Shown here: in pieces, positions 10,821 to 55,225 of the stretch
Position numbering within the stretch: position 1 is the stretch's first letter
Layout: every line of letters starts with the position of its first letter
Virus record (IMG/VR): IMGVR_UViG_3300033498_000048
Span: 241,783-305,782 of that record
Length of the DNA: 64,000 nt
Direction: 5' to 3' (one strand)
Source of the DNA: a virus
Taxonomy: Duplodnaviria; Caudoviricetes
Notes under the pieces: model-generated
Seen by the model: the letters and a program-made list of their open reading frames with translations, nothing else
Told to the model about the DNA's origin: nothing
Database searches by the model: none
Program-made: the position numbers and the translations under genes

Positions 10821-10875
10821 TAGCACTTGGAACAGTCTTATAATTAACTAACTGTTCCAAGTGCTAACCTGTTGA
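10821..10875. repeat. Palindromic repeat family, single unit (locus 1)
   Basis: Perfect 16-bp IR tagcacttggaacagt (10821-10836) / actgttccaagtgcta (10851-10866), then acctgttga. Confidence 0.9.
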
Positions 10876-10878
10876 TAT

Positions 10879-12012
10879 TTACTTAATTAGTCCACGAATT
10901 AAAGATTCAAACTTACGAATTTCTAGCTTTCTCAAATAAGCTGGAATATCTGTAATAGCACCCTTTTGATATGCAAAAACTATTCCAGATAAGTTTTGAT
11001 TATCTTTCATTTTTAAGCCAAGTTCTTTTCCAGTTAATGTTTTAGTGTATTCAATAAGCGTGTCTAGTTTCTGTTGTAATCGCTTGTACGCTGTTTTTAT
11101 GGTTGAGTGTAGCACTGTATGCTCTTTGTACTTATCGAGCGATAGGAACGATTTGTGTGAGTTTGTACGCACTATTTCACACATTCTACGGAAATTGTCT
11201 TTATCTATTTGTGATTTTCGTTTGATGTATTCCTCATTTGATATGAATTTAGAAGTCCGCAACAGATTAATATTGTCGTATTGTGGACTCTTTATTTTCA
11301 ACCGATTAAAATTAGAATCACACGCAACATAACCTTCCATCTTAATTGGGTCAACCTCATTTAATTCCAATAAAATATCATTCAAGGTTGATTTTTTACC
11401 AGTTGCACATTCCCATGAAATACACAATTCACGTTTAGCACGTTCAATTGACACCTCTTTAAAAGTTTTAAGATTGCGAACACCAATAAGGGTAATGTTA
11501 GGTTCTGATACTTTAACCAAAAAGTCTTCTGATGGACGTTCCATTTCAAACATATAACAATGGTCTGTAAACTTTGGTAATTCGTATTTTTTCAACTTCC
11601 AAACTTTCCAGAAATAATCATTCATTGTAATATCTAAACCCTTAATTTGTCCAGACGCATCAGGCATACCTTTAGATGCTACATTCCATTTTCCATCATA
11701 CCAATACAATGTCATCAATGAACCATCTAACTTTTTCCAATATGTACAATCATCAAAATCGAAAGTTTGTTTTCCCATTGGATTATAATCACTAAACCTA
11801 GTAAACGGAAATGATACAACCTTCATTGTATTAGTATCAATTATTAATCCCCTACAATTATTAGTTATGTCATTCTTTGGTGTTTCCAATTGGTCATACA
11901 TCAATTGTACTAAATTTGGATATAATATATGTCTACGCATTTTTAATGAATATGTAGCAACTAATGTTTCCAATGAATTTTTAATAATGTAATCAATAAC
12001 GTTTAACATCAT
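10879..12012 (-). CDS. rnlA: RNA ligase, T4 Rnl1 family
   Basis: CRGLIID, FPFTRF, KKLDGSL (motif I KxDG), MFEM, EGYV, LKIKS. Confidence 0.85.
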   Translation of the reverse strand: MMLNVIDYIIKNSLETLVATYSLKMRRHILYPNLVQLMYDQLETPKNDITNNCRGLIIDTNTMKVVSFPFTRFSDYNPMGKQTFDFDDCTYWKKLDGSLMTLYWYDGKWNVASKGMPDASGQIKGLDITMNDYFWKVWKLKKYELPKFTDHCYMFEMERPSEDFLVKVSEPNITLIGVRNLKTFKEVSIERAKRELCISWECATGKKSTLNDILLELNEVDPIKMEGYVACDSNFNRLKIKSPQYDNINLLRTSKFISNEEYIKRKSQIDKDNFRRMCEIVRTNSHKSFLSLDKYKEHTVLHSTIKTAYKRLQQKLDTLIEYTKTLTGKELGLKMKDNQNLSGIVFAYQKGAITDIPAYLRKLEIRKFESLIRGLIK

Positions 12013-12184
12013 AACCTCGTTTAGTTTGTTTAGGAAGGAACAGCACCTAAGCTATTACAGTCTTTGTAAAATATCTCAATGCGTTTTTTATTTGCATAAT
12101 CATCTGCAACGTATAATAACAATACTACACACAAATTAGTTCTACCAACTCTTGTTTTCTATATACCACATAACACCTCTTTAA

Positions 12185-12409
12185 TTAAAGTCTTCTAAAG
12201 TTGGAACATTTAACTGCGTGTGTTCCATCCAAGTAATGCTTTAGAACTGGCTTCATTTTTTTAAATTCTAAATGACTACAATTCACAATACTATCAATAC
12301 AATTACAACACATTTCACCATCTGGAAAATACTCAGGTAGTGTTCTATCAATGTAATTACCATCTCCAATTGTTTGATTACCCTCAAACACAAATTTAAG
12401 TTTTCTCAT
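12185..12409 (-). CDS. Hypothetical Cys-rich protein
   Basis: 74 aa directly downstream of consensus early promoter. Confidence 0.55.
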   Translation of the reverse strand: MRKLKFVFEGNQTIGDGNYIDRTLPEYFPDGEMCCNCIDSIVNCSHLEFKKMKPVLKHYLDGTHAVKCSNFRRL

Positions 12410-12438
12410 AATGTAATTCCACGAATATCAATTTAGTA

Positions 12439-12467
12439 ATTATAAATGTACACACTAACAATGTCAA
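12439..12467 (-). promoter_or_regulatory. Consensus sigma70-type early promoter
   Basis: TTGACA-N17-TATAAT on minus strand; -35 box abuts the first repeat arm at 12468. Confidence 0.8.
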
Positions 12468-13046
12468 TCAATAAGTTAGCATTAAGTAATTAATAATAGC
12501 GTCCAAGTGCTATCTTATTGATATTATTAGTGTATGACTACTCCAACTAAATCAACGACTTAGCACTTGCATAGAGTATTAGTTATATAACCGTTCTAAA
12601 TGCTAACCTATTGATTTTGTTACATATCACCTAAAATATTAAGAATCAACAAGTTAGCACTTGTAGCCATTAGGTAATTAATAACACCATCCAAGTGCTA
12701 AGTCATTGATTTTGTATAATTGACAAGAATGTATGGATTTAACCGTAAATCAACAAGATAGCACTTGCAGCTTGGTATTAATTATATAACTGTTGCAAGT
12801 GCTAACTTATTGATTTTGTTATTGGCTATTAAAACAATTAAGAATCAAGTGGTTAGCACCTATTGGTATCAAGTGGTTACTATTGTCAATAAATTGAGTA
12901 AAATGACCTAGTAATTACAGTTACACTACAAACAATAGGTTAGCACTTGCAGTGTGTTATTAATTACTTAATGGCTACAAGTGCTAACTTATTGTTTTAT
13001 ATACAACACATAAACACACCTAAATCAATGACTTAGCACTTGGACG
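12468..13046. repeat. Palindromic repeat array (locus 2): five two-armed units plus two half-sites
   Basis: Units at 12468-12521, 12552-12614, 12646-12709, 12750-12813, 12932-12995; halves at 12845 and 13025; period about 85-105 bp. Confidence 0.95.
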
Positions 13047-13069
13047 GATTAGCTGAAATTGGTAAACAA

Positions 13070-13077
13070 CATAAATA
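13070..13077 (+). promoter_or_regulatory. Late promoter variant CATAAATA
   Basis: 30 bp upstream of ATG 13108. Confidence 0.5.
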
Positions 13078-13107
13078 CCATTTTAGTTAAATTAGGGGAT
13101 ACAGATT

Positions 13108-13687
13108 ATGTTACTAAGTTTTAATGAATATTTGTTATCTGAGGCATACATTAACCTGATAGGTGATGACGCTAAAAAACAAAACTACGTTGATGCTGTT
13201 TGGAATATGTTACAAATATCTTATGAGAGGATTGGTGGAATACATGATTATGGGTTTAAAGATAAACAGAATATGATTACCAATATAAATTTTTGGAAAT
13301 AGCTACTAAAGATGGTAAACCTGTAGCAGTTGCAATGTATAAAGATTCTGGAGGCAGAAAAAATTAGTTGCGTATGGAACTGATAAGTCCACAGTAGGAA
13401 AAGCAAAGATAGTTGATATTATTAAGGCAGATATGACCAGAAGTTATATGGAACTATCTGGTGCAACTGTGACAATATTAATGAATAACATTGAGTGGAA
13501 TCAATTGAAAGATTATACATTCACTCCAGAGCAAGCTGAAAAATTGCTAGGAAAGGATATTACACCAATAAGTCAACTACCATCAATTCCATAAGATGCG
13601 AAATTAACGTTGGCATTGTTTGAATATGGGTACATAAGAAAGATTGGTAGTGATTTACATTTTAAAGTTATGTTTGGTAAAATCTAG
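13108..13687 (+). pseudogene. Interrupted putative internal virion protein
   Basis: MLLSFNEYLLSE leader; adding one A at about 13299 and one in the A-run 13358-13363 gives a continuous reading (...FWK-IATKDGKPVAVAMYKDSGGRK-KLVAYGTD...YIRKIG...KVMFGKI) with one in-frame TAA at 13592. Confidence 0.65.
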
Positions 13688-14208
13688 CATCTGTCCGATG
13701 GTATATTCCAGTGTTTCATAAAAGTCTTTAATGATATTTAATACGGGTGAAATGTTACTAAACCTATGGTTTCCACCATTAAATACAATTGTTCTAAATG
13801 AATTGCTATATCTGTTGTTTGTAGTAATTGAATTAATTAACTCATCACCTAGGTTTAGTAATAAAAGACCAATTCCAGTTGATTTAAATTGGTCTTTATA
13901 AAATTGTATCTGGTATGCACAATTCAAACAAAGTAATATTAGGTTCAATTGCTGGATTTAACATAACAAATGGAATATCTAAAATATTACCTAATCTGTT
14001 TGCATAGAATCCCACCCATTGAAGTTCCGACCAACAAGTCGGGCTTCATGTCTATTATTGCAGATTCAAGCATTGTTGTAATGTGTTCTATGGAATTAGA
14101 ATAATCTATTGTAACTCCACAAACATCTCCAATAGCCATTAAAGACTTCACTTTATCGCTACTTTGGTCATAAAACGAACCATAGCCATGAATGTACATT
14201 ATTTTCAC
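13655..14208 (-). pseudogene. Frameshifted YqiA/UPF0227-type alpha/beta hydrolase (esterase)
   Basis: MYIHGYGS...VGTSMGG; removing one G at 14011-14013 gives GGFYANRLG...LNPAIEP; a second shift (13898-13945) leads to LLLLNLGDEL...GGNHRF in track ORF 13655-13948. Confidence 0.8.
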
Positions 14209-14260
14209 TTAAAACTCGATGTTAGTTGACATTTTAACTACCTTTATAATTTAAGTCAAA

Positions 14261-15421: not shown

Positions 15422-15444
15422 ATTACATTTATAGGTATTAACTT

Positions 15445-17057: not shown

Positions 17058-17070
17058 ATGGTAAAATATA

Positions 17071-32591: not shown

Positions 32592-32963
32592 CTAATTTAA
32601 ATGTTGTTGTTGTGTTAATAAGATTATTTCACATTTGATGACTTTATATCTTAGGCTCGTAAACATATCAACGGATTGCCTAGCCAACTTAGCAGTTTGA
32701 CTAATCGACTCTAATATTACATTACCACTAAGCTTGTGGACTACACAATATAAATTTCTAGCTAATATGGTTGGAGTTTTGTGTTGGTTGTTCCATGATT
32801 TATATTCAATTGGTATGAATAATTGTAATCCAACCTTAACAACATTGCTCGTATGTGCAAAACACGTTTTTTTATGTTTTGATATTGAATTTAATATTGG
32901 GTATGAAACTTCATTCAATGCACAATAACACTGTATAGGGTCTATATATTGTTTTAATTCCAT
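32592..32963 (-). CDS. Hypothetical protein
   Basis: Start moved to MELKQY because the track start (33026) lies in the -35 box of a consensus promoter. Confidence 0.5.
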   Translation of the reverse strand: MELKQYIDPIQCYCALNEVSYPILNSISKHKKTCFAHTSNVVKVGLQLFIPIEYKSWNNQHKTPTILARNLYCVVHKLSGNVILESISQTAKLARQSVDMFTSLRYKVIKCEIILLTQQQHLN

Positions 32964-32997
32964 TTCAAATCCTAAAATACTATTATGTAAATGGTGT

Positions 32998-33026
32998 ATT
33001 ATAATAGCACAATGTACAAATGTCAA
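32998..33026 (-). promoter_or_regulatory. Consensus sigma70-type early promoter
   Basis: TTGACA-N17-TATAAT, 33 bp from repeat array. Confidence 0.8.
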
Positions 33027-33059
33027 AATATATTTTTAACACATCAAGTCGTGGAAGAA

Positions 33060-33339
33060 TCAATAAGTTAGCCCTTACAGGTGTTGGTTAATTAGTAAAC
33101 GGTTCCAAGTGCTAGCTTGTTGATATTGTTAATGTTTATTATACTCAATTATATCAATAAGTTAGCACTTGGAACGTGGTATTAGATATATAACCGATGC
33201 AAGTGCTAAGTCATTGATTCTTAATAATTGACAGTAAAAATTTAGCACTTATGGAGTGGCATTAGTTACATAACTGTTCCAAGTGCTAACCTGTTGACAT
33301 TATTAGGACACAATCATTACCAGTTAAATCAATAAGTTA
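33060..33339. repeat. Palindromic repeat array (locus 3)
   Basis: Units 33060-33123, 33154-33217, about 33242-33297; half-site 33329. Confidence 0.95.
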
Positions 33340-33362
33340 TAGCATTGTAGCAAGTATTTGGT

Positions 33363-34045: not shown

Positions 34046-34342
34046 ATGTACTATAAATTTACAAATCCTACTAAAAAACACACATTGATAATTGAAGCTA
34101 AATCTAAACTACAAGCCATGGCAAAAGCTGAATCACATGGCGAGGTATTTGAATCAACAAGTGAAGTGTGTGATTATGATTGTAGTTCTACTGACACAAT
34201 AGGTTTTGAATATGTGGATGGATTTATTGAAGAAGTCCATTCTAACAAACCAAAATTGCGTGATTTTATAATAAAAGGTTATTGTGAAACTGTATCACTA
34301 ATTCCATTAAACGGTACACGCATATACACTGAAAAACTTTAA
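34046..34342 (+). CDS. Hypothetical protein
   Basis: 98 aa after early promoter. Confidence 0.55.
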   Translation: MYYKFTNPTKKHTLIIEAKSKLQAMAKAESHGEVFESTSEVCDYDCSSTDTIGFEYVDGFIEEVHSNKPKLRDFIIKGYCETVSLIPLNGTRIYTEKL

Positions 34343-34393
34343 TTGGTCCAATAAAATAGGGAGCTACTATATTGACTTAGTAGCTCCCATTTA

Positions 34394-35350
34394 TTATATT
34401 TCAATTGGACCAACAACTTCTGGTTTATACATACTACCTTCTGGTCCATAAGCAACAATATCATAAACCTTGTCTTTTGTTCCATAAAATTCCCAATATG
34501 CCGAGCTATCGGGAACAATTTTATGTGTTTTTCCATCTGGTAATTCTCGAATCAATACTACACTTGCTGGACTGTATGGGTGTGTACTATCTTTTGCAAT
34601 TCCAGATAACATCTCATTATATGCTGATAGCGTGTATATGGTATTAACACAACTTAATCCCACGTCAAAATCGAACATAACCACGTCTTTAAACAACGAA
34701 GTTGAATTAGCTATAGTAGCATCAAGACTCTTACCAATATGGCAATAGGGGCGATTTAACGCAGCTATTTGTGCAATATTGATGGTATTGTCTTCAATCA
34801 ATATTCCATTTAGGTAAACTGAAAACTTATTAGTTGTTGGATTTAACGTAAGAGCAATGTGATACCATGTGTTGTCTAATAAATTCACAATTGAGGTAAT
34901 TGATAAATCACCATAAATTAAATTTGTTAGTCTACAAAATATTGTATTATAATTGGTGTCTTTAATTATATCAATTGAGTTTTGTATTCCATTGGAATCT
35001 GATGTCAATGAAAATAAACAATATTGATAATCCCTAGATGATATGTCTTTACTATTAAACCAAAACATGATAGTAATTCCAGTTGAATTGATGTTATTTA
35101 ACAAATTATTAGTTGGAATTGTTAAATAACTATTAATAGATTTTTCTAAAAATAATCCACCGAATTGTGTATTCGCATTGCTTTTAGGAATTGTAGTTAA
35201 TGTTGCGTCATGTCCGTTAAAACCTTCATCCATGATATTAGTTGATAAGTCCCCTTGCAATCGGTAAAAAACAACAGGCTTATTAACCAAAACCTGTTGT
35301 TTTACTGGACTACAATTCCTAGCAAAAGGACTTTGTGTTAGTTGTATCAT
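34394..35350 (-). CDS. LamG/concanavalin-A-like domain virion protein
   Basis: ITIMFWFN...NTWYHIALT...SVYLNG...IGKS...FKDV. Confidence 0.8.
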   Translation of the reverse strand: MIQLTQSPFARNCSPVKQQVLVNKPVVFYRLQGDLSTNIMDEGFNGHDATLTTIPKSNANTQFGGLFLEKSINSYLTIPTNNLLNNINSTGITIMFWFNSKDISSRDYQYCLFSLTSDSNGIQNSIDIIKDTNYNTIFCRLTNLIYGDLSITSIVNLLDNTWYHIALTLNPTTNKFSVYLNGILIEDNTINIAQIAALNRPYCHIGKSLDATIANSTSLFKDVVMFDFDVGLSCVNTIYTLSAYNEMLSGIAKDSTHPYSPASVVLIRELPDGKTHKIVPDSSAYWEFYGTKDKVYDIVAYGPEGSMYKPEVVGPIEI

Positions 35351-35827
35351 TTAAACATCTTTCACGAAATCTTCTATCCAATCTAGTCCTAAGCTTGGAT
35401 AATTCACTTCTATATTCTTTTTAATTAAACTTAAAGTTTCTCCTGATTTAGTTAATTTTTTAACATCCTTTTTTGCAGCATTTAATAACTTATAGTTTAC
35501 TCCACCATTGTAGCTGTTTACAATTTCTTTTAATGATTGTTCCATTCTATTTTTTATAGATTTAGTACAGTTTTTTTGGTGTTTAATAATTGTTTGTTGT
35601 AGTGATTTTAGTTGTGTTATACACATATCATCAACGCGATTTGGATATGTTAAAAAATATCCAAATCGCCCTTGCTCACTATCAAATAAAAATAACACCA
35701 ATTCAACCGATGTTAGTGTTTCAGTGTTTAGGATTGATATTATGGAACGGCATGACATTCCTGTTTTTATATAAGTTTTCATGTAACCCAAGGATTCGAT
35801 TAATTGTGGAACTAGACTTACATCCAA
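35351..35827 (-). CDS. Hypothetical protein, paralog of 36511-36822
   Basis: ETLTSVELVLFLFD...F.YFL..P...DD..I.QLK.LQQT.IK.Q.NCT shared. Confidence 0.65.
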   Translation of the reverse strand: MDVSLVPQLIESLGYMKTYIKTGMSCRSIISILNTETLTSVELVLFLFDSEQGRFGYFLTYPNRVDDMCITQLKSLQQTIIKHQKNCTKSIKNRMEQSLKEIVNSYNGGVNYKLLNAAKKDVKKLTKSGETLSLIKKNIEVNYPSLGLDWIEDFVKDV

Positions 35828-35862
35828 TATAAACCATGTAAGTCTTTAGTTGAGTTATTGTG

Positions 35863-36159
35863 TTATTTAATTACCGTTGATATAGCTCGCTCAAAAGCTG
35901 ATTTGAAATTATCAAAATTGTCTAAAAACTCTTTAGTTTTACCTTTATCTGGCTTTCCATTTGAATAGAAATGTAATGAATCAGATGATGGAATACTATC
36001 GAATATGTCAACTTGGTTAATTGATGTTAATGATATTAAGTAATCAAAAAACGGTTGTACCATATCGTCCGTAAGTTGTGAATCTATTTTATCCCAACTG
36101 TTACGAATCCAATTAGAAATGTGGTCAAAGTCTGATAGTTGTGGATTATCTGTTGTCAT
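35863..36159 (-). CDS. Hypothetical acidic protein
   Basis: 98 aa, GAGG RBS. Confidence 0.55.
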   Translation of the reverse strand: MTTDNPQLSDFDHISNWIRNSWDKIDSQLTDDMVQPFFDYLISLTSINQVDIFDSIPSSDSLHFYSNGKPDKGKTKEFLDNFDNFKSAFERAISTVIK

Positions 36160-36182
36160 GTTTAAGTCCTCATTGTTTATTA

Positions 36183-36414
36183 TTAAAGCGTGTGTTGTAT
36201 CGCAGTTAATTTTGAAATATCATAGTCGATATAATCTTTGTTACTTCCAAGGTAAAGTTTACTCACTCCAGCACCTATCAACCTCGCATACACTTTTAAT
36301 ACAGATTTTTCGTCTCCGTTTGTTGGGATATACACGTTTAACCATGAGTTTTTCAATCACAAGATTTCCAATAGAAGGTTGGTGATTGATAACAACTGTG
36401 TCATTGCGTTTCAT
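36183..36414 (-). pseudogene. Possible frameshifted small gene
   Basis: MKRNDTVVINHQ...RVY; removing one C of CCC (about 36326) extends it to PTNGDEKSVLKVYARLIGAG...QHTL. Confidence 0.35.
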
Positions 36415-36510
36415 AATAAATTCTCACTTTGTGTCGATTTTCGATGGAACAAATTATAATGATATTCAAAACTAAAGTCAAACTATTTATTATAAACAAG
36501 TCTAACAAAA

Positions 36511-36822
36511 TTAGGTGTTATAGTTAGATTCAATTTCAGCTAAGGCTTTTTTCATTTGCCGTTTAATTGCAGGAGTGCAATTTGGTTGATATTTGATAAC
36601 AGTTTGTTGTAATACTTTTAATTGTTCTATTACTTTGTCATCGGTAATATCAGGATTCACTAAAAAGTATTCAAATTGTCCTGAAGCATCATCAAATAAG
36701 AATGAATCCAACTCACCTGTTGATAAAGTTTCAGATTTTAGTATTGAATTTATCTTTTCAACTGACATTCCAGGTTTTATAATGGTTTCAGATTCACTTA
36801 AGAATTGTCCAAATGTTTTCAT
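36511..36822 (-). CDS. Putative internal virion protein
   Basis: MKTFGQFLSES leader closely resembles T4 IP capsid-targeting sequences. Confidence 0.7.
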   Translation of the reverse strand: MKTFGQFLSESETIIKPGMSVEKINSILKSETLSTGELDSFLFDDASGQFEYFLVNPDITDDKVIEQLKVLQQTVIKYQPNCTPAIKRQMKKALAEIESNYNT

Positions 36823-36831
36823 GTTTATTCC

Positions 36832-37533
36832 TTATTTGTTATAAAATGGGTTATCGTCAATTTCACTTAAAGGGTTTTCTTTAAGCATACTTTTAACCAT
36901 GTCTAATATCTTTGTATCCAAATGGTTTTTTAACCAAGGGTTAGATGTCATATTTATAGACGAGTCAACATTCATATCCATCAACTTTTGTATTTTTTTA
37001 TTGGCTTCTTGTCCCAATTCGTTAATGATAACATCGTCTAACTTTTTAACACCTTGATAAATTGCATTAGAAATATCATTAAACGAATCAGCTCGTGATA
37101 ACCAAGACATTCTTCTTGAAAATTCACGTTCAGCTTTCCCAGTTTCAGTGTTAATAGACCATTGTGGAACTGAACCATTATTTATTCTACGCAATATTTC
37201 AACTCGGTCTTTTTGAACTTTAACAGCGTTTTCCCATATTGTTGGATAATCACGTCTTAATTCAGATATATCATCTTGTTGGACTAATGCAATAATAGCT
37301 TGCATTTTATCGAAAATTATTTTATCAATTTCAACCTTTTCAGGTGATTCTTGATATATGTCTTGTTTTATTTTATTGATTTTTTTATGTAAACTGGGAT
37401 TACCTCCAGCTAAGATGTTTCCATCATGGTCAACATATATTGACCCACCTCTGCCCATTCGTTTCCAAGTTCCACCAGATAATGCCTTTTGGTCAGCCTC
37501 TGACAAAACCATAAAATCTTTAATGCTTATCAT
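36832..37533 (-). CDS. Putative internal virion protein
   Basis: MISIKDFMVLSEA leader; GTW...GSIYVDHDGNILAG motif. Confidence 0.6.
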   Translation of the reverse strand: MISIKDFMVLSEADQKALSGGTWKRMGRGGSIYVDHDGNILAGGNPSLHKKINKIKQDIYQESPEKVEIDKIIFDKMQAIIALVQQDDISELRRDYPTIWENAVKVQKDRVEILRRINNGSVPQWSINTETGKAEREFSRRMSWLSRADSFNDISNAIYQGVKKLDDVIINELGQEANKKIQKLMDMNVDSSINMTSNPWLKNHLDTKILDMVKSMLKENPLSEIDDNPFYNK

Positions 37534-37668
37534 ATTAATTTATCCTATATTATGGTTGGTTTTGTTGTATTTATTATATTTGAATACTAGGCTATAGAGT
37601 CATTTATTACTAATGGTCCAGTTTCTTTTCGTATCATCATGGACATTAGATTCAACTTAGATACGACT

Positions 37669-37742
37669 CATCTTATGTCCAGTGTGTTATATTAAGTTTA
37701 GTATAAATACAAGAAATCAAATAACACACTGGACATAAGATG
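37669..37742 (+). promoter_or_regulatory. 22-bp perfect inverted repeat sequestering RBS/ATG with late promoter in the loop
   Basis: catcttatgtccagtgtgttat (37669-37690) / ataacacactggacataagatg (37721-37742); TATAAATA at 37702-37709. Confidence 0.8.
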
Positions 37743-38543
37743 GCAAAATTAATAAACGACAAGTATTACACTCCATTAGAATTGGCTCAATATTGTATAG
37801 ATAAAACGCATCAAATTATAGGGAATAAAAATATCACTGAATATATTGAACCATCAGCTGGAAATGGGTCATTTAGTTTATTATTACCTGATTGTATTGC
37901 ATTTGATATTGAACCTGAGCATCCATCAATTATCAAACAAGACTTTTTAATGATTGATATACCACATAAATCTGGACGATGTGTTATTGGGAATCCTCCA
38001 TTTGGAAAAAACAATTTATTATATAGGAGGTTTTGTGATAAAAGCTTTAATATTGCTGATTATGTTGCTTACATTTTACCTATCAGTCAATATAATAACA
38101 GAAATCTAATTTACAAATTTGATTTAATTTATAGTGAAAAGCTTAATCAGGTGTTGTTTAGTTCGGCTAAACAAGTTCCAGTTTGTTTTAACATTTATAA
38201 AAGACCATTAAGTGGAATTTACAATAAACGTCCTAAATTATACCACAAATATATTAAGTTTATATATAAAACTAGGCACTCGAACGAAATCATCAATGAT
38301 TTTGATGTGATAATATGTGCATGGGGGAGTAATGTTGGTAAACCAATAACAGATTTAAATGCTCCTAGATGGACATCAAGTATGTACATTAAATTTATTG
38401 ATGGACTAGATACTTCAATTAAAAGCAAACTAATAGAATCAATATCAAATGTTGATTGGAAACTCAAATATAGTATGCCTAGAAATGGGTCAATATCATA
38501 TTGGCATATTTATAATTATCTAAATGAAATTGTTAAGGAGTAA
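37740..38543 (+). CDS. N6-adenine DNA methyltransferase
   Basis: DKYYTP, IEPSAGNGSF (motif I), VIGNPPFG (motif IV). Confidence 0.85.
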   Translation: MAKLINDKYYTPLELAQYCIDKTHQIIGNKNITEYIEPSAGNGSFSLLLPDCIAFDIEPEHPSIIKQDFLMIDIPHKSGRCVIGNPPFGKNNLLYRRFCDKSFNIADYVAYILPISQYNNRNLIYKFDLIYSEKLNQVLFSSAKQVPVCFNIYKRPLSGIYNKRPKLYHKYIKFIYKTRHSNEIINDFDVIICAWGSNVGKPITDLNAPRWTSSMYIKFIDGLDTSIKSKLIESISNVDWKLKYSMPRNGSISYWHIYNYLNEIVKE

Positions 38544-38549
38544 CATTAT

Positions 38550-39038
38550 ATGGCTAAAAGAAAAACAGCACAAGATAAAGAAGCTGAATACCAAAACAAC
38601 CCTTGGATGTTTAATAATGAACCGTTCAATGATTGCAAACAATATGCTGGATTTGTTTATGAAATAATAGACTTAGAAACCAGTAAACGCTATATTGGAA
38701 AAAAGTTTTTTTGGAGTATGAAACGGGTTCCAGGTAGAAAAAACCGAATCACTGTAGAATCTACATGGAGAGAATATTATAGTTCCAGTGTTGAGATTAA
38801 GGCACTGGTTAAAGAATTTGGAAAAGCTAGATTTAAGCGAACCATATTATCAATACACGAATTAGAAAGGGATGTTAATTATGAAGAAACAAGGCAATTA
38901 TATACTAAAAAGGTATTATCAGAAGTGAATGGTGATGGTGAATTGGTTTATTATAATGGAAACATTGAAGGTAAACGATTTTCTAATCTTTGTATTGGAA
39001 TAGAAAATCGTAGTTTATTTGCAATGGAAGCAATTTAA
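38550..39038 (+). CDS. GIY-YIG family nuclease
   Basis: GFVYEIID...RYIGKK...W..YYSSS...RTIL...E...YYNGNI. Confidence 0.8.
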   Translation: MAKRKTAQDKEAEYQNNPWMFNNEPFNDCKQYAGFVYEIIDLETSKRYIGKKFFWSMKRVPGRKNRITVESTWREYYSSSVEIKALVKEFGKARFKRTILSIHELERDVNYEETRQLYTKKVLSEVNGDGELVYYNGNIEGKRFSNLCIGIENRSLFAMEAI

Positions 39039-39052
39039 TAAAGTTTTTATTA

Positions 39053-39289
39053 TTAGTCCACAATAAAAGATATGTTATCATAGCCACTAAAATGGTGTAA
39101 CTTTGGAAACACCGAAATGGTAAACCAACAACCAAACTCAAAGTAGTCGTTCATCATTTTGTCTTTAGAACACCCAAATTTATTCTTTACATTAACACCA
39201 GTTGATAAATCCAAACTCGTAGAGGTAAATTCGCACCCATTACTAGAAGTGTGTTGGATAACAATTATTGATTTTATAGATGTGGACAT
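39053..39289 (-). CDS. Hypothetical early protein
   Basis: AAGGA RBS, consensus promoter upstream. Confidence 0.55.
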   Translation of the reverse strand: MSTSIKSIIVIQHTSSNGCEFTSTSLDLSTGVNVKNKFGCSKDKMMNDYFEFGCWFTISVFPKLHHFSGYDNISFIVD

Positions 39290-39321
39290 AATGATTCCTT
39301 TAAGTTCTCAATGATGGTTAT

Positions 39322-39350
39322 ACTATAATGTGTTGGAGTTATAATGTCAA
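39322..39350 (-). promoter_or_regulatory. sigma70-type early promoter
   Basis: TTGACA-N17-TATAGT; -35 box abuts repeat arm at 39351. Confidence 0.75.
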
Positions 39351-39589
39351 TCAATATGTTAGCATTTGCAACGGTTAAGTAACTAACACATTCATTGATT
39401 GTGTTGTCATAAATACTTGCTGTAATAGAATCAATGAGTTAGCACTTGGAGCTATTACATAATTAATAACAATGTCCAAGTGCTAACTCATTGATAGTTA
39501 TACTATTCACATCAATTATGAAAAATCAATGGGTTAGCACTTGGAACTATCATATAATTACTAACACGCTGCAAGTGCTAACTTATTGA
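39351..39589. repeat. Palindromic repeat array (locus 4)
   Basis: Half-site 39351; units 39431-39494, 39526-39589. Confidence 0.95.
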
Positions 39590-39593
39590 TAGG

Positions 39594-40277
39594 TCAACCA
39601 ACACCAATAAGGTTTTGAACTGGGTCAATGATTACTAATTCCTTTGTGCTTGGACGTATCATAAAATTATCACTATGTAAATCACTCATAAAGTTTTTAA
39701 ACAAAGGCTCGATTAATCGCAAAGCTTTTATTAAATTATCATCTGTAATTCTGGATTTAAGTTTCAAACGTCTAGTTGGGTTTGCAAATTGTTGTCTAAT
39801 ATCAAGATACAAGTCATTTAAGTTTCTGTAGCTATTAAATGGGTCAAAAAAACCCAATGATTTAAACATATTCCATACAAATTTAGCATCTTCATGGAAT
39901 AACGGCATTAAACGTTCTACTACCATGACCAGCATATATTTTTCTTGTGTTGGTTGTATCAATGTTCTATATTTTAAAAAGTCAATATCATCTTCTGTTA
40001 ATTCTGAATTGTCATACATCTTATAGGTATAAACTTTTGGAAAATATGGATTATTTTCGTGATTAACACACAATCTTAAAAATTGAACAGAAGCATCATT
40101 CTCACCTGTTACATTAACAACCTTTATAATCTTGTTAGCATCTTTAGTGTGAGCATATACCAAGGCTTGAACTCCAGACCCTAATAGCTTTTTATCTTTC
40201 ATTATACCATTGAATTTTGTATCAGATTTAGGGAGTTGTAATTTAACTTCCCTAATATAGTTTTGATAGGACAACAT
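39594..40277 (-). CDS. Ser/Thr-type protein kinase, putative internal virion protein
   Basis: LLGSGVQALVY (Gly loop), IIKV, PYFPKVY, VVERL, DLHSDNFM, VIIDP; MLSYQNYIRE leader; CATAAATA at 40375-40382 (minus). Confidence 0.85.
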   Translation of the reverse strand: MLSYQNYIREVKLQLPKSDTKFNGIMKDKKLLGSGVQALVYAHTKDANKIIKVVNVTGENDASVQFLRLCVNHENNPYFPKVYTYKMYDNSELTEDDIDFLKYRTLIQPTQEKYMLVMVVERLMPLFHEDAKFVWNMFKSLGFFDPFNSYRNLNDLYLDIRQQFANPTRRLKLKSRITDDNLIKALRLIEPLFKNFMSDLHSDNFMIRPSTKELVIIDPVQNLIGVG

Positions 40278-40298
40278 TTATTATCTCCATGTAGTAGT

Positions 40299-40651
40299 GA
40301 GTTAGCACTTGCGATAGGTATATAATTAACAACACTGTTTCCAAGTGCTAACTCGTTGATTTAATTATAGTAAATATTTATGGTAATGGAATAAATAGGT
40401 TAGCACTTGGAACGGTTATACAATTAACTAACACCTGCAAGTGCTAACCTATTGATTCTTAGTAATTGACAATGATTGTAACTTAACCAACTATCAATGA
40501 CTTAGCACTTAGACACATTAGGTAATTACTAACAATGCCCAAGTGCTAACGCATTGATTTAATTGAGTTTAGTGAATGTTATTATAATCAACAAGTTAGC
40601 ACTTGGAACGGTTATATAATTAAGACCACACTGCAAGTGCTAACTTATTGA
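40299..40651. repeat. Palindromic repeat array (locus 5), four units
   Basis: Units ending 40359, 40455, 40557, 40651. Confidence 0.95.
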
Positions 40652-40685
40652 TTCTTATACACAACTTTACATAATAAGGAACAAA

Positions 40686-40835
40686 ATGAACATAATATAT
40701 TTAATGTGGGTTATTCACAATGTAATTATTCATCCATTAATGATGCTTATGTCTGTTAGTAAGGCTAACGCATTACACGATGCGAATGCAATTTGGGCTT
40801 TTAAATTGAACACGAAGGTAATCAACGATGCTTAA
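40686..40835 (+). CDS. Small hypothetical protein
   Basis: Not in track; AAGGA RBS; MNIIYLMWVIHNVIIHPLMM..., 49 aa. Confidence 0.5.
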   Translation: MNIIYLMWVIHNVIIHPLMMLMSVSKANALHDANAIWAFKLNTKVINDA

Positions 40836-41453
40836 CTTTAAACAGTTTTGTTTATTAGAATCTACATTAAGTGATAATGAAATTATTGAATTGGGAAACC
40901 GAATAAGAAATACTTTTAAAACAAATGATGTTGAAATGAACTATAATTTATTATCAACATTCATATCTTAATATTGGAAATAGATGTCCAAGTTTTTTCA
41001 TTAAACACTAAGAAAAAAGTTGTGAAAACTAATGTCACATTTGGAAATGTTCAAATTGAAAATCAATCATCGCTGAGTGAAAAACGATTTATTGAATTGG
41101 CTGGAATGGTAACTGATTTATTGAGTAAGTTTCAATGTGAATATAAAAAGGCATTATCTGGAAAATTAAAATTCGTATTCAAACCATCATCCGAACAAAA
41201 GGCAAAAGCAACTTACAAATCAGAGCTTGATGAAATATGGATAAGCAATTCAACAGAAACTTTAAAATTATTTACAAAAGAGTTATATGGATTGCCAAAT
41301 TGGTTTAATTCAAGTTACATAACATCTAAGTATTCGGTTAGTGCTGGATTCGCAGATGAAGAAAATTGGGCTGAATGTTTCGCAATTGCTTTCTTTGGTC
41401 AATCAATTCATCCCAGATTATACAAATTGGCAAAATGTAATAAACAAATTTAA
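40828..41453 (+). pseudogene. Interrupted internal-protein gene with zincin-like remnant
   Basis: MLNFKQFCLLE leader ORF stops at 40971; downstream frame (40974-41453) has ATY...DEIWI and S.Y...EENWAECFA but no HExxH. Confidence 0.5.
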
Positions 41454-41477
41454 AATAGGCTTAGGTTGTTTCTACGT

Positions 41478-41710
41478 CCAAGTGCTAATTCATTGTCAAT
41501 TACTATAATCAACAAGTTAGCACTTACAGCTTGGTCTTAATTATATAACTGTTCCAAGTGCTAAGTCATTGATAGTTAGTAATTGACATAAATAGTAACT
41601 TAACCAACTATCAATGACTTAGCACTTGGTCATTGTTAGTAATTACCTAATGTGTCTAAGTGCTAACACATTGATTTAATTGAGTATAATATTAACAAGT
41701 TAGCACTTAG
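41478..41710. repeat. Palindromic repeat array (locus 6)
   Basis: Half 41478; units 41509-41572, 41611-41674; half 41692. Confidence 0.95.
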
Positions 41711-41762
41711 ACGATGTTAATGATTATGGTGTATTGAACAAATCTCGACATACGCAATAGAA

Positions 41763-42221
41763 TCATTGTTTGCGTTTTTTAATACCTAAATCATATTCAT
41801 TCATAATTTGGAAAGTAAAGTTGTGTAATCTAGCCCATTCGATAGCTGCTTTCCACTTATCCTGATTTACTTGCCATGTAATACATTCATTAATAAAAGT
41901 TGTTTGTCGTTTACGTCCTTTAACTGGAGGTATAGTTTGGTCATGTGGTTTAATTTCAATAATAATGTCTTTTAATGAACCATCTTTCATTTTCACTTTA
42001 ATAAAGAAGTCTGGAAAATACCTTCTTAATTTCTTATCAGCTTGACTATAATATTGTATTGCTTGAATTTCACTACCCCATAATTCAACAGATGGATTCA
42101 TATCACACCAACGCATAAACTTAGTTTCCCATGAACTCCTAGATATAACATTGGTACTGTCTCCAACATATTTCTCTTTGTTTTTAACCACATATTTAAT
42201 TGGTGTCGGAAATCTTTTCAT
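41763..42221 (-). CDS. gp4: Head completion nuclease gp4 (TnsA-like)
   Basis: KNKEKYVGD..N..SRSSWE.KFM.WCD.NP....WGSE...RRYFPDF...IEIKP...NQDKW. Confidence 0.95.
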   Translation of the reverse strand: MKRFPTPIKYVVKNKEKYVGDSTNVISRSSWETKFMRWCDMNPSVELWGSEIQAIQYYSQADKKLRRYFPDFFIKVKMKDGSLKDIIIEIKPHDQTIPPVKGRKRQTTFINECITWQVNQDKWKAAIEWARLHNFTFQIMNEYDLGIKKRKQ

Positions 42222-42265
42222 TTGTATTACATTTATAAATATAATATTTATGTGAGATTAATACT

Positions 42266-43078
42266 ATGTCAATATTAGATGTATTTGATTCTGCTGTTAG
42301 TTCTGTAGCTAATACGGTTTTAAAATCAGTAACATCATTTGAAATTGGAAAATCATTTGGAATTCTTAAATATCCAGCCACAGTTGGGGAAGGTGTTTTT
42401 CCATCATGTATTCAATTTCAAGAATATAAACGGAGCAGTCCAATGGAAAGCTTACCTTGGACTACAATTTATATGTATATGCCTGAAAAGGTATCTAATC
42501 CATCACAAATTTCATGGGAAGGAAATGACACATTAGCAGCAAGTCAAATGAAAAAAATGAATGATGGGCAGTTTACCAGTGCTGCTGGGGCGTGGGCTTC
42601 AAGTTCTATTGCACAAATATTAAATGAAAAGGCTAGTATGTTGGGTACAGATTTGGACACTGTATTAGGTGCTGGTGGAAATATGATACAGAATCCATAT
42701 TTAACTATGATGTTTAAGGGTGTAGACCAACGTGATTTTTCATTTGAATTTAAGTTGTTTCCACATTCTAGGTCTGAGTGTGATAATATTCACAATATCG
42801 TAACTGCATTTAGGGCTGCTGCATATCCAACTGGAAATTCAAATGATGCGTTATTAGGTTATCCTAGCGAATTTGAAATCCAATATCTATTTAACGGACA
42901 ACAAAATAAATGGTTAAATAAGTTCAAACGAAGTGTAATAACTAATGTGGATGTAGATTATACAGGTTCAGGTGGATGGACAGTTACACGAGATGGTTTT
43001 CCATCAGAAATATCACTGACAATAGAATTTAAAGAAATGCAAGTATTAACATCATCTGATATACAAGCAGGATATTAA
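42266..43078 (+). CDS. gp48: Baseplate tail-tube cap gp48
   Basis: NPYLTMMFKGVDQRDFSFEFKLFP...YPSEF...KFKRSVITNVDVDY...LTIEFKE. Confidence 0.9.
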   Translation: MSILDVFDSAVSSVANTVLKSVTSFEIGKSFGILKYPATVGEGVFPSCIQFQEYKRSSPMESLPWTTIYMYMPEKVSNPSQISWEGNDTLAASQMKKMNDGQFTSAAGAWASSSIAQILNEKASMLGTDLDTVLGAGGNMIQNPYLTMMFKGVDQRDFSFEFKLFPHSRSECDNIHNIVTAFRAAAYPTGNSNDALLGYPSEFEIQYLFNGQQNKWLNKFKRSVITNVDVDYTGSGGWTVTRDGFPSEISLTIEFKEMQVLTSSDIQAGY

Positions 43079-45613: not shown

Positions 45614-45622
45614 AATATGTGT

Positions 45623-45795
45623 CCAAATGCTAACTCATTGATTCTAGTGAATATGTGTTTAAACAACCAAATGGTATGGGAATCAATAGGTTAGCATTTA
45701 CAACCATTAGGTAATTACTAACCCGTACCAAGTGCTAACGCTTTGATTTAATTGATAATAATATACACTAATAATATCAATTGGTTAGCACTTGG
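45623..45795. repeat. Palindromic repeat array (locus 7)
   Basis: Half 45623; unit 45683-45746; half 45777. Confidence 0.9.
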
Positions 45796-45823
45796 TACGG
45801 TTAGTTAATTAGTACACACGTTA

Positions 45824-49695: not shown

Positions 49696-49711
49696 GCTTA
49701 CCTTACACAAA

Positions 49712-49923
49712 TCAATAGGTTAGCACTTACAGGTGTTAGTTAATTAGTACCAGTGTCCAAGTGCTAACTCATTGATAATTCAAACAACAGACACAACTTG
49801 GCTTGTGTGATAGTGGATATTAAACTGCTAACTTAGTCTTTCAGTATAATTGACAAGAATCAACAGGTTAGCACTTGGAACAGTTATATAACTAAGACCA
49901 GTCTGCAAGTGCTAACTCATTGA
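49712..49923. repeat. Palindromic repeat array (locus 8)
   Basis: Units 49712-49775 and 49860-49923 with a degenerate site between. Confidence 0.95.
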
Positions 49924-49953
49924 TTCGTAATAATTGACAATATTGTTACACGA

Positions 49954-51904: not shown

Positions 51905-51920
51905 TACAATACCATCCTTA

Positions 51921-52464
51921 TTATCGTTTCATATAAATTACTACTCTAACATCGTCTTCATGGACAACTTCATTATCATCCACATACGAGCTAATCCCAT
52001 TAATTACACTATAGGCTTCTCCTGGAATACCATCATTCATATTGGTATCAATTTTGAATCCATATTTACCATACAGTTTAAATAGTCCACCATCTCCATC
52101 ACGGAATGCGAAACAATCTAATCGTTTTGCTCCATTCTCGATTGCACTTTGCATTATAGCATTTCCAGACGAACCCTGTGAACTGAATACTGATACCAAT
52201 TCATTACCATGTAAAGCATATCCAGAGCTATTGTTATCACCTAAATAACATTCCATCTCATTATACTCACGCACTGAATATATTGTTAGTGTGTCCAATC
52301 CTTTTCAGCATCACCCCTAGCAATATCATTGGACTTTATCTTACTAATTGCAGTGGCAAATGTCCTACCATCGGTTTTGTTAAAACTATCTCCACTCGTT
52401 AAAGCTTGTCCTTTTTTAAGTTCCATATCAGCAAAGTCTCTTTAATGTATTCAGAAAAACTCAT
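51921..52464 (-). pseudogene. Frameshifted GNAT-like internal-protein gene
   Basis: MSFSEYIKE leader at 52464; two one-base shortfalls (about 52440 and about 52302) link it to the track ORF with ELVSVFS...AIENGAKRLDCF...LYGKYGF. Confidence 0.6.
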
Positions 52465-52476
52465 ATAGTTCATTTA

Positions 52477-53145
52477 TTACATTCCATTTGATTGTTCATA
52501 TTGGTATATCACATCAAGTACCTTGGACAATATACACTTTGTTGATATGAAATCATTGTTAGATTTCATATACAATCGCTTATTCACTTCTATCATAATA
52601 GACATGACAGCAATATTATTTATATACTGTGTTGGAATGATACTTCCAGAATATGGGACATTAATTCCAATAGTGTAATTTGAATCAAGCAATACCCCAA
52701 CAACATCACAAACTAATTCTGGAGGTGTTTGATTAGTTGTTCCAATACGAATATCTGGCGAATTATTATCTCCAGTAAATGAGTGACAATCTACAACAAC
52801 AACGATTGGAAAATAACATAATGCCTTTGCTACAAGTTTGTTTAATTCATTGTGCCATTTGTTGTAAATGTTTTCGATAATCCAATCTTTATCAACGACT
52901 TCAATTGGATTATCATTAGCACCCTTTGTATAACAAATTCCATGTCCATCCTTGTATAGTGGCTCTATATCATCTGGGAAACGTTCAACATCACATACGA
53001 ATCTTGAAACATCTTGGACCATAAGGTCAGCACCTTCGTGATGGAATAATAACTGTGTTGACCAGTCGGTTAATGCGTCAATATCACTTGATTCAATGTT
53101 TCGTCCCAATGTATTTACACCTGAATGTGGAATGTGTAATATCAT
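52477..53145 (-). CDS. N-formylglutamate amidohydrolase-family protein
   Basis: ILHIPHSG, SRFVCDVER, VVDCHSF, PDIRIG, NVPYSG, IMIEVNKRLY; start moved to MILHIP. Confidence 0.85.
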   Translation of the reverse strand: MILHIPHSGVNTLGRNIESSDIDALTDWSTQLLFHHEGADLMVQDVSRFVCDVERFPDDIEPLYKDGHGICYTKGANDNPIEVVDKDWIIENIYNKWHNELNKLVAKALCYFPIVVVVDCHSFTGDNNSPDIRIGTTNQTPPELVCDVVGVLLDSNYTIGINVPYSGSIIPTQYINNIAVMSIMIEVNKRLYMKSNNDFISTKCILSKVLDVIYQYEQSNGM

Positions 53146-53155
53146 ATCATTAATC

Positions 53156-53389
53156 CTATTTTGTGGTTGGAATGTTAATACAGCATAATCCATATATGAA
53201 ACCAAACAGTTCACAATACGAATCGACTGGATGTATAAACTTATTACTATTGCGTAGCTGATACAACCAAACAATAAATCCTATAACTAATATGTATTGT
53301 AATGTTAATATTATTAATATTGTTACAACTAAACATATAAAACAATTAATTAAAATTTCTTTTGATACTTTGAATTTAGGTTTTATCAT
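53156..53389 (-). CDS. Small membrane protein
   Basis: Long hydrophobic segment. Confidence 0.45.
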   Translation of the reverse strand: MIKPKFKVSKEILINCFICLVVTILIILTLQYILVIGFIVWLYQLRNSNKFIHPVDSYCELFGFIYGLCCINIPTTK

Positions 53390-53573
53390 ATGATTCCAAT
53401 GTTTTTAAGTATTCAGTAGCAAACTGAATCTGCTCATAGCAATATTCAATGTATGCTTCAATTGCTTGTTGACTAGCCGATTCATTAAACTCTGTAAAGT
53501 CGCCAAACCCATCTCCTACAAATAGAATACCATTTTCGCTTTTTTGTATTGAGTTAATCCAATTGGTTATCAT
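53376..53573 (-). CDS. Hypothetical acidic protein
   Basis: 65 aa, coupled to neighbours. Confidence 0.5.
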   Translation of the reverse strand: MITNWINSIQKSENGILFVGDGFGDFTEFNESASQQAIEAYIEYCYEQIQFATEYLKTLESYDKT

Positions 53574-55075
53574 ATAATGTCCCTCGATAGTTTTAATAAA
53601 GTATCATTAATTGGTTGTGTGTCGTCTGGGAGCCAGTTTCTTATGCGACCAACTGCGATATTGAGTTTTTGTAACGTGTTAATGTCCTTAAAATACAAAT
53701 GAATTGTACCCTTCATGTATATTTTGACTGTAAAATGTTTTGATTCCATTTTTATGCCAGCAAAAAAGTTATTAGCTTTAATCGAATTTACAATTCCATT
53801 AGTTAAATCTGGAATATTGCCTAGCAATCTGTCTAGTACCATATCAACATCATTGAGTGTGGATTCCCCGTGATAATCAAAATCTAATTTGTTATTATAA
53901 CTCAATTTTACAATATTTGGTAATACAACTCGCCTTTTCGTGAATATTGGTTTATCGGTAGTTTTATTCCATCCAATTTCACCAACAACTGTTTTAGTAT
54001 TACTTTTCCAACCTTCATAATGATTTCTATTATCTGGATAATACTTTGTGAACGTATCAAATATATCCAATAACGTGTGATTAAAAATTGCAATTGAATT
54101 ATCAAGTAATTCTTGTAAGAAGTACCTAATATTGTGTTCTGTAAATTCAAGTTTTGATATGTTGGTTCGTTTCTTTTCAAACTCACTCCTAACTGCACCA
54201 GTCATCAATTTTGAAAACTCTGAAACAGTCCACACGCCACCCCATGCAGAATCACGCAACGAGTCTAACTCGCTATTCAATTCTCGTTTAATATCATATT
54301 GTATTTCATATGCTGGAGATTTATATTGCGATGTTATCATTAAAGATTTGTAATATGTTGCTTTAGCTTTAGCAATACAAGCTTCCCTAGCCGAATTGAC
54401 TGCTAAGTTGTAATAGTTGACTAATTCAGATATTCTTGATTGTTTTATTGCTAATTGGTTTTGTAAGCTTGAATCCATTGCAGAATATTCAGGCTTAGAT
54501 TCTGATAATGAACTCAAATCAAAGAAGTCTTCAGCATAATTAGCAACTTTAACTAAATGTATTAACACAACTTCAACATCTGTAGAACGTTCACTATCGG
54601 TAAACGCATTTTCAATGTATTCAATTGTGTTTGTTGGATTAGATTCAATGATTGAAATTAATAACTTCCGTTCTTTTGAATATGGGTTTCGTATAGATTC
54701 CGCGTTTAATAATGCAATGACTTGTCCAGAATAAATCAAATTATACGCTCGCAATACATGATTAACCCCAACACTAAATGGAGGATTCATAACAATACAA
54801 TCATATAAAGTTGGACTCGAAAAATTCATAAAATCAAAACCAACGACATTACAACCCATTCCCCTTAATGAGTTTTGTAATACTGGTTCAATTTCTATAC
54901 AATCTATTGTTATTGTGTAATTGTTATATCTTTTAAATTCCTTTATTGCTTTAACAAGATTACCTGACCCAGCACTTGGTTCCAATATCGTTTTAGACTG
55001 TGGTTGTATTAGTTTAGCCATCTTTGTAGCTAACCAATCTGGAGTTGGGTAAAATTCAGTATCATTAATCGACAT
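53570..55075 (-). CDS. Adenine methyltransferase with DUF4942-like C-terminal domain
   Basis: EFYPTP, ILEPSAGSG, IVMNPPF, ALLNAESIRNP; C-term HYEGWKSN, YMKGTIHLYF. Confidence 0.85.
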   Translation of the reverse strand: MSINDTEFYPTPDWLATKMAKLIQPQSKTILEPSAGSGNLVKAIKEFKRYNNYTITIDCIEIEPVLQNSLRGMGCNVVGFDFMNFSSPTLYDCIVMNPPFSVGVNHVLRAYNLIYSGQVIALLNAESIRNPYSKERKLLISIIESNPTNTIEYIENAFTDSERSTDVEVVLIHLVKVANYAEDFFDLSSLSESKPEYSAMDSSLQNQLAIKQSRISELVNYYNLAVNSAREACIAKAKATYYKSLMITSQYKSPAYEIQYDIKRELNSELDSLRDSAWGGVWTVSEFSKLMTGAVRSEFEKKRTNISKLEFTEHNIRYFLQELLDNSIAIFNHTLLDIFDTFTKYYPDNRNHYEGWKSNTKTVVGEIGWNKTTDKPIFTKRRVVLPNIVKLSYNNKLDFDYHGESTLNDVDMVLDRLLGNIPDLTNGIVNSIKANNFFAGIKMESKHFTVKIYMKGTIHLYFKDINTLQKLNIAVGRIRNWLPDDTQPINDTLLKLSRDII

Positions 55076-55114
55076 TTGTGTTTCTCGGATAGTTGACTTG
55101 GTTGTTCCAATAAA

Positions 55115-55225
55115 TCAATAAGTTAGCACTTGGAACAGTTATATAACTAATACATCCATGTAAGTGCTAACTTATTGATTTAATTGATAATGATTACAAT
55201 GTAACAAAATCAATAAGTTAGCATT
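55115..55225. repeat. Palindromic repeat array (locus 9)
   Basis: Unit 55115-55178; half-site 55210. Confidence 0.9.

Follow-up and report, generated by a model that had tools for sequence, protein, structure and literature searches.

In IMGVR_UViG_3300033498_000048, a virus record of 305,782 bp that has terminal repeats and comes from the metagenome of a microbial mat, the final 64 kb (positions 241,783 to 305,782) hold a palindrome-like repeat at nine intergenic loci, and this raises the question of what such a repeat does between the genes of a phage. We call this 64,000-nt stretch the window and use its coordinates throughout, with open reading frames (ORFs) taken from a crude model made for this analysis. 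Homologues of gp2, gp4, the tail tube protein and RnlA give the phage a T4-like character; it also encodes an ATP-dependent ligase, its late promoter is the T4-standard TATAAATA, its early promoters are of the TTGACA/TATAAT type, its genes carry Shine-Dalgarno sites, and its closest cultured relative by gp2 is Pseudomonas phage pf16 (42% identity). Our analysis suggests, with about an even chance of being right, that the repeat units are the stem-loop or 'linker' module of a promoter-early stem-loop (PeSL)-type cassette system of a T4-like jumbo phage, a module that in this lineage may have expanded to a strict 64-bp element whose copies now form mosaic arrays.

An intergenic repeat family spread over the genome

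Allowing at most one mismatch, the arm motif TTAGCACTTG occurs 47 times in the window against 4.41 expected, a number that none of 100 shuffles reaches. A profile hidden Markov model (HMM) trained on the units themselves finds 26 places in the window, every one of them at the nine loci, comprising about 20–21 two-armed units, with half-sites making up the remainder. This agrees with a sequence-only reading of the window, which had described a family at nine loci with 21 two-armed units plus about 9 half-sites. That reading had described the family at positions 10821–55225; a scan of the full genome with the HMM shows it to be far wider, with ~102 full units grouped in 39 arrays and the element occupying ~3% of the 306-kb genome. 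All credible copies are intergenic, and matches inside genes are lone, mostly imperfect 10-mers at chance level. Arrays stand, as had been noted, in tandem, convergent and divergent gaps alike (8–13% of each type), the largest of them in divergent gaps, and gene-free arrays reach 14 half-sites.

Architecture of the repeat unit

Each unit is built from two invariant inverted arms, ATCAAT-NNN-TTAGCACTTG, around an asymmetric 28-bp AT-rich core. In 85 of the 96 good units genome-wide, the outer ends of the 10-mers lie exactly 48 bp apart, and this distance together with the ATCAAT-NNN extensions makes up the 64 bp that the earlier description had given for most units. Its scheme of an arm, an AT-rich core and a mirror arm stands for the arms, but the core is no neutral spacer and proves to be one conserved asymmetric module. 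The two core halves are strongly anti-correlated (position 18 is identical in 9% of units against 46% expected), so that the core is not a degenerate palindrome, and a single asymmetric 28-bp consensus, GAACNGTTA-KR-TAA followed by YTAATA-CCAC-NN-TG, fits 71 of the 85 oriented units. Judged by its sequence, the unit is not a true hairpin palindrome.

The arms can fold, with DNA folding energies of −10 to −22 kcal/mol. Arm-to-arm complementarity of the NNN positions is 0.44, 0.55 and 0.71, against 0.46, 0.55 and 0.64 expected from shuffled pairings; no copy has a compensatory change at stem positions 1–5, 7 or 8; the transcribed strand of the 59 tandem-gap units has 70 G·U against 57 A·C mismatches and hence no G·U preference; and an Rfam search of the window gives no match. 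Because covariation, a G·U preference, compensatory changes and an Rfam match are all absent, the arms are, on the evidence of the copies themselves, constrained as sequence and not as pairing partners, and the family is set apart from structured RNA families. The fixed core length points the same way. The sequence-only reading had argued from the non-covarying NNN positions that the family is not selected as an RNA stem, and the G·U counts bear it out.

Some signals considered within the unit were rejected. TTATATAA of the core is not the late promoter, which in this phage is TATAAATA; a sigma70 promoter inside the unit would have the wrong spacing, and its sites number 25 against 23 expected; and GTGCTAA is no MotA box, as its spacing is wrong and no credible MotA or AsiA is present.

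Blocks of variation break at the arms

Linkage between variable positions was analysed over 170 unit halves. The flank is linked to the adjoining NNN (z=3), and variable core positions, both halves included, are tightly linked to each other (z 8–18), while NNN and core are unlinked. Variation therefore comes in blocks of flank plus NNN, core, and NNN plus flank that are reshuffled at the arms, the breaks in linkage between NNN and core placing the points of reshuffling within these invariant sequences. For 70 of the 85 units the nearest core belongs to a different array, where it is often turned the other way and set between unrelated flanks. One pair of copies (40478–40570 and 41595–41690) shares its flanks, and the 30-bp cores between them are reverse complements at 29 of 30 positions. 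Adjacent cores inside arrays are mostly co-oriented (22 against 8), which fits array growth by unequal exchange; relative to genes, core orientation is near random (29 against 20). The linkers, which had been seen to reuse motifs, belong to two main families of 28–30 nt, found in either orientation. Their reuse as modules accounts for a constant ~95-bp period, which we did not use as evidence of helical phasing, the linkers being homologous modules.

Arrays adjoin stop codons, early promoters and small genes

The repeat arrays and associated features of the window are the following.

10811–10876, unstranded: lone 64-bp unit in a tandem gap, with the upstream stop 2 bp away and the next start codon 19 bp away.
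12439–12467, minus strand: perfect early promoter TTGACA-17-TATAAT, adjoining the left end of the next array and driving the minus-strand gene that starts at 12409.
12459–13051, unstranded: large array of ~6 units plus half-sites in a divergent gap.
32998–33026, minus strand: perfect early promoter TTGACA-17-TATAAT; the array past gp2 lies just upstream of it.
33058–33345, unstranded: array of 3 units and a lone arm, directly past the stop of gp2 (DNA end protector); syntenic with the single unit of relatives L008 and L009.
39322–39350, minus strand: early promoter TTGACA-17-TATAGT, in contact with the end of the next array.
39350–39590, unstranded: array of 2 units and one degenerate unit, directly past the stop of a kinase-like gene.
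40293–40653, unstranded: array of 4 units filling a divergent gap, with ribosome-binding sites adjoining both ends and no sigma70-type promoter found.
40478–40570, plus strand: left copy of a direct repeat, on one side of a 1.1-kb gene cassette.
41470–41718, unstranded: 2 units plus half-sites, forming an array beside the gp4 (head completion) gene in a convergent gap.
41595–41690, plus strand: right copy of the direct repeat, with flipped core, on the other side of the 1.1-kb gene cassette.
45615–45803, unstranded: array in the convergent gap past the gp19 (tail tube) gene.
49710–49925, unstranded: array of 2 units in the convergent gap past the gene of a 722-residue Laminin_G_3 protein.
55114–55225, unstranded: one unit and degenerate material in the tandem gap upstream of a DUF4942 gene.

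In tandem gaps across the genome, arrays lie a median of 13.5 bp from the upstream stop against 58 bp from the next start and are closer to the stop in 23 of 28 cases, in keeping with the proximity to stop codons already remarked in the window. Downstream, the outer arm is often followed by a −35 box at a fixed distance: ATTGAT-N9-TTGACA occurs in 24 copies at exactly 9 nt, with 6 further copies at 8 or 10 nt. This places a sequence able to form a stem-loop just upstream of a promoter element, as in PeSL cassettes. Of the 24 perfect intergenic sigma70 early promoters, seven are found no more than 50 bp downstream of an array, and a promoter that agrees with the consensus at 11 or more of 12 positions follows 13 of the 39 arrays at the same distance or less; near-consensus promoters adjoining arrays in the window are those at 12439–12467, 32998–33026 and 39322–39350. 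The ORF listed at 32592–33026 (minus strand) begins with the TTG of such a TTGACA −35 box, so its real start must be further downstream; its L008 homologue has 125 residues.

Arrays also cluster around small genes. Single genes enclosed by two arrays number 10 against 4 expected (p=0.004), and array pairs no more than 2 genes apart number 18 against 7.6. One array-enclosed gene (39594–40277, minus strand) has a weak match to the family of T7 gp0.7-type protein kinases (phrog_15752, E=3e-12). Elsewhere in the window are genes for a methionyl-tRNA synthetase and for an AAA ATPase like BCS1, with BCS1_N and AAA domains (2947–4497 and 9038–10237, both minus strand), the latter unusual in a phage.

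Synteny with relatives breaks at arrays

Relatives were compared through four short contigs from three samples (L008, L009, L012 and L013). In the metagenome contigs L008 and L009, gp2 is 77–78% identical to that of the window, and homologous units stand beside it (nhmmer E about 1e-7). These units have the TTAGCACTT arms in common with the phage, an AT-rich core of 17–27 nt, an ATCAAT box that is absent or imperfect, and runs of A and T on their flanks. In L008 the order is stem-loop unit, T-run, perfect TTGACT-17-TATAAT promoter and then a gene, which, read from the contig, is the published PeSL layout (PMC2839356, PMC4122927), and the single units of the relatives look like terminator-plus-promoter cassettes. 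The sequence-only reading had set PeSL elements aside as different in architecture; that judgement is overturned by this arrangement, by the 9-nt spacing to TTGACA in 24 copies and by the perfect promoters that adjoin arrays.

In L008 and L009, gp4 and gp2 lie about 210–380 bp apart and are separated by no more than one unit; in this phage the distance is 7.8 kb, and accessory genes and three arrays intervene. In L009, the gene convergent to gp2, past its unit, is the one that here follows gp19 and its array; in L012, the accessory block that lies here at ~36.8–39.3 kb stands beside gp19 in the other orientation; and the gap after gp19 holds no unit in L012 or L013 and the array 45615–45803 here. 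Synteny breaks relative to L008, L009 and L012 thus coincide with arrays. Together with the block breaks located in arms, the flipped core and the enclosed small genes, these breakpoints give direct sequence support to recombination or shuffling, one of the functions that had been suggested for the family.

The accessory stretch between gp2 and gp4 (34046–41710) includes the genome's only SegE-type GIY-YIG homing endonuclease gene (38550–39038). The gp4 head-completion homologue itself (41763–42221, minus strand) scores as Pfam Tn7_TnsA-like_N (E=9e-20), so that 'TnsA-like' genes beside the relatives' gp2 are gp4 and not transposon genes. L009 also carries a second short intergenic repeat, ACTTCAATTAAATCGTTACG (915–950 and 1820–1855); part of it, CAATTAAATC, is the commonest outer flank of units in this phage, with 29 exact copies genome-wide, mostly with an arm directly after.

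The exact unit pattern was sought in 185,579 bacterial species genomes as well as in IMG/VR and JGI metagenomes. IMG/VR and the JGI metagenomes yielded no copy, and the species genomes none except one unrelated orthologous Acinetobacter intergenic locus, which we rejected as a family member as it is devoid of outer arm and core and resembles an unrelated attenuator. This locus lies between two TerD-like genes (L005:5440–5520, L006:3495–3575, L007:1310–1385) and has only the 10-mer and the 28-nt spacing in common with the phage unit; its three copies of (T)TAGCACTT(G) could form two alternative hairpins, which gives it an attenuator-like look. A looser arm pattern had two matches in IMG/VR, judged to be chance; an unrelated 60%-GC viral contig (L010:3640–3730 and 9755–9840) shows a chance overlap with the arm motif in inverted blocks of the tandem 7-nt repeat TTAGCAC. 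No comparable repeat family was found at 80 distant gp2 loci from IMG/VR (at most 37% identity), and no units on L097, a contig with a homologue of the kinase.

None of the public RNA runs checked contained the phage. Contigs assembled from public runs over the region end at arrays and are uninformative on variants, since the joints there reflect further copies of the family; in practice, arrays interrupt short-read assemblies in this phage group.

A proposed shuffling module of the PeSL type

We propose that the 10–19-bp arms serve the very active homologous recombination of the phage as patches of short homology. Cassettes would be inserted, deleted or swapped by exchange between the arms of separate units, tandem arrays would be built by unequal exchange, and a core would be flipped when its own two inverted arms exchange or when the template is switched between them. 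In transcripts, the hairpin probably marks a cistron boundary as an attenuator, 3'-end hairpin or processing site, and not as a strong terminator. Since the arm sequence is perfectly conserved, in relatives as well, additional recognition of the arms by a protein is suggested. To our knowledge, PeSLs are the sole mechanism proposed for the swapping of accessory genes in T4-type phages with regulation left intact, and descriptions of them are limited to a few cultured phages. This genome would represent an extreme form, with a record of recombination in its own copies: reshuffled blocks, a flipped core and cassettes bracketed by direct repeats. Its invariant arm, common to relatives, could serve as bait for the protein that the PeSL authors speculated might target stem-loops.

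Several observations weigh against a PeSL-type reading. Only about 5–8 of 37 arm–TTGACA composites have a proper −10. Thirteen arrays adjoin the next gene's ribosome-binding site, leaving no room for a promoter, and T-tails are weak, with at least 5 T in the 8 nt after 21% of arms against a 10% background. Arrays in such a position are not efficient terminators, and with the weak T-tails this indicates that most units are not, and that many are transcribed within longer mRNAs; no terminator-like site was found in 39000–42300 either, so the family does not have the properties of intrinsic terminators. Gene-free arrays of up to 14 half-sites have not been described for PeSLs, whose described stems are short and often GC-rich, and the comparative evidence comes from only the four short contigs. 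A length-invariant 28-bp core and uncompensated arms in ~100 copies fit recognition by a sequence-specific protein better than they fit a generic hairpin or homology alone.

Alternative explanations

In two further readings a protein is central. The arms may be sites of a dedicated phage protein, possibly acting with host IHF, that actively catalyses exchange and core flipping, which we consider possible but well short of likely. Were it so, arrays would be programmed recombination or architectural hubs serving site-specific cassette exchange in a lytic jumbo phage, and not passive homology patches. The cognate protein that the sequence-only reading had placed outside the window was not identified. 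RAYT (PF01797) and the tyrosine (PF00589) and serine (PF00239) recombinases are absent from the whole genome, extending what had been said of the window, although cas genes, also named in that statement, were not searched; with no PF00589 or PF00239 protein encoded, the units are unlike dif-, lox- or attC-type sites, and a link to homing endonucleases was rejected, the genome having a single SegE gene. The units may alternatively be double-stranded DNA platforms with host IHF on each arm (WATCAANNNNTTR) and another phage or host factor on TTAGCACTTG and/or the 28-bp core, bending and organising DNA upstream of early promoters or compacting the genome. We regard this as a tentative reading with a minor share of the probability, and it could be either a rival or an addition to the PeSL-type one. 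The exact IHF consensus WATCAANNNNTTR, a candidate site, is present in 164 arms, compared with 57 occurrences against 54 expected in the rest of the genome; yet a match to one famous consensus is a post-hoc coincidence test. The low-information NNN positions coincide with those that IHF leaves free, the invariant arms carry no compensatory changes, and 85 of 96 units have a core of the same length. The anti-correlation of the core halves looks like an avoidance of perfect hairpins or cruciforms, the direction of transcription has no bearing on the units, and the largest arrays are found in divergent gaps. However, the IHF box is absent or imperfect in the homologous units of L008 and L009, where only TTAGCACTT is common to both, the phage encodes no HU/IHF protein (PF00216), and the 95-bp spacing, arising from reused linker modules, is no evidence of phasing.

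Three further explanations are weaker than the IHF platform. Selfish non-autonomous repeats, resembling repetitive extragenic palindromic (REP) sequences, bacterial interspersed mosaic elements (BIMEs) or miniature inverted-repeat transposable elements (MITEs), could have been spread by a nuclease, a transposase or gene conversion and tolerated unless they split a promoter from its gene. This seems improbable to us, even though the unit ends in inverted arms, near-identical cores recur far apart amid unrelated flanks, BIME-like mosaics combine the unit with a few linkers in either orientation, placement is independent of context, and an array follows gp19 here where L012 and L013 have none. 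Unlike in MITEs, the inverted termini are not accompanied by target-site duplications (no direct flank repeat of 2–8 nt at any boundary offset); the genome has no RAYT or tyrosine or serine recombinase and only one SegE homing endonuclease; copies are missing from the bacterial species genomes bar the unrelated Acinetobacter locus; and the arm is conserved across relatives with gp2 only 77–78% identical. A primary function in RNA, where the units would be processed by RNase III as in T7 or would stabilise 3' ends as hairpins between cistrons, with a lower stem, the non-pairing NNN as internal loop and an upper stem, is likewise improbable. It would account for the two-stem, internal-loop geometry with its folding energies, for arrays directly past stop codons and for the 13 arrays that adjoin the next ribosome-binding site and are thus transcribed within polycistronic mRNA. 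A weak homologue of the T7 0.7 kinase is also encoded. In T7, the gp0.7-type kinase stimulates RNase III, and by analogy its homologue beside many long intergenic hairpins is suggestive. On the other hand, the lack of covariation and of an Rfam match, the G·U and A·C counts and the random orientation of cores relative to transcription speak against an RNA function, arrays stand between divergent genes too, and a duplex substrate needs no conservation of arm sequence. Replication origins, or enhancer/origin regions like the homologous regions (hrs) of baculoviruses, are by far the most doubtful proposal. The analogy lies in dispersed arrays of imperfect palindromes with an AT-rich centre, but the phage has no gene for an iteron-binding initiator, and about 40 loci far exceed the need of a T4-type phage. 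The multi-origin option that had been raised for the window finds no skew signal, and nothing else points to origins.

Comparison with known systems

Escherichia coli BIMEs are likewise mosaic arrays of inverted palindromic units with a small repertoire of linker motifs, here the two families of 28–30 nt in either orientation; they are extragenic, often lie past stop codons and are associated with the IHF consensus, BIME-1/RIP holding an IHF site. The phage element differs in being AT-rich and twice the length, at 64 bp, where REP sequences are GC-rich palindromes of 20–40 bp; it has neither the GTAG/CGTC tag nor a RAYT (PF01797), its IHF box is in the arm and not in the linker, and it belongs to a lytic phage genome. 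CRISPR-like arrays are a poorer match still, since the repeat is 64 bp long and the linkers are reused families and not unique spacers. Baculovirus hrs share imperfect palindromes in repeated units of ~70–95 bp, dispersed arrays at many loci of a large viral genome and a tie to genome rearrangement; they differ in that the phage has no IE-1-like binder, enhancer or origin activity is without support here, and sequences and host domain are unrelated. Hairpin-loop micro-inversions of chloroplast non-coding DNA show the spacer between short inverted repeats in both orientations, with identical flanks. The flipped core resembles these, though here it belongs to a multi-copy family and the flipped segment is a conserved module.

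The closest likeness is to the PeSL/PmSL elements of T4-type phages (Arbiol et al. 2010, PMC2839356; Comeau et al. 2014, PMC4122927). They too are conserved intergenic stem-loops upstream of an AT-rich stretch and a sigma70-type early promoter, present in many copies per genome, clustered around small accessory genes and sited at indel or replacement junctions between relatives; the enclosed genes and array-bound synteny breaks described above match these last two traits. Decayed copies with a −35 only and a proposed role as short homology patches in modular shuffling complete the resemblance. PeSL stem-loops are further expected to terminate transcription, and recombination among the cassettes to give mini-circles. 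The phage unit differs in its 64-bp length with a strict 18-bp arm, a length-invariant asymmetric 28-bp core and an IHF consensus in the arm, in tandem, gene-free arrays of up to 14 half-sites, in the lack of a −10 from most copies and the weakness of T-tails, and in arrays that also stand beside core structural genes (gp2, gp4 and gp19). What is new here is how far the element has been elaborated, with a strict 64-bp unit, mosaic arrays free of genes and arms that contain a perfect IHF consensus.

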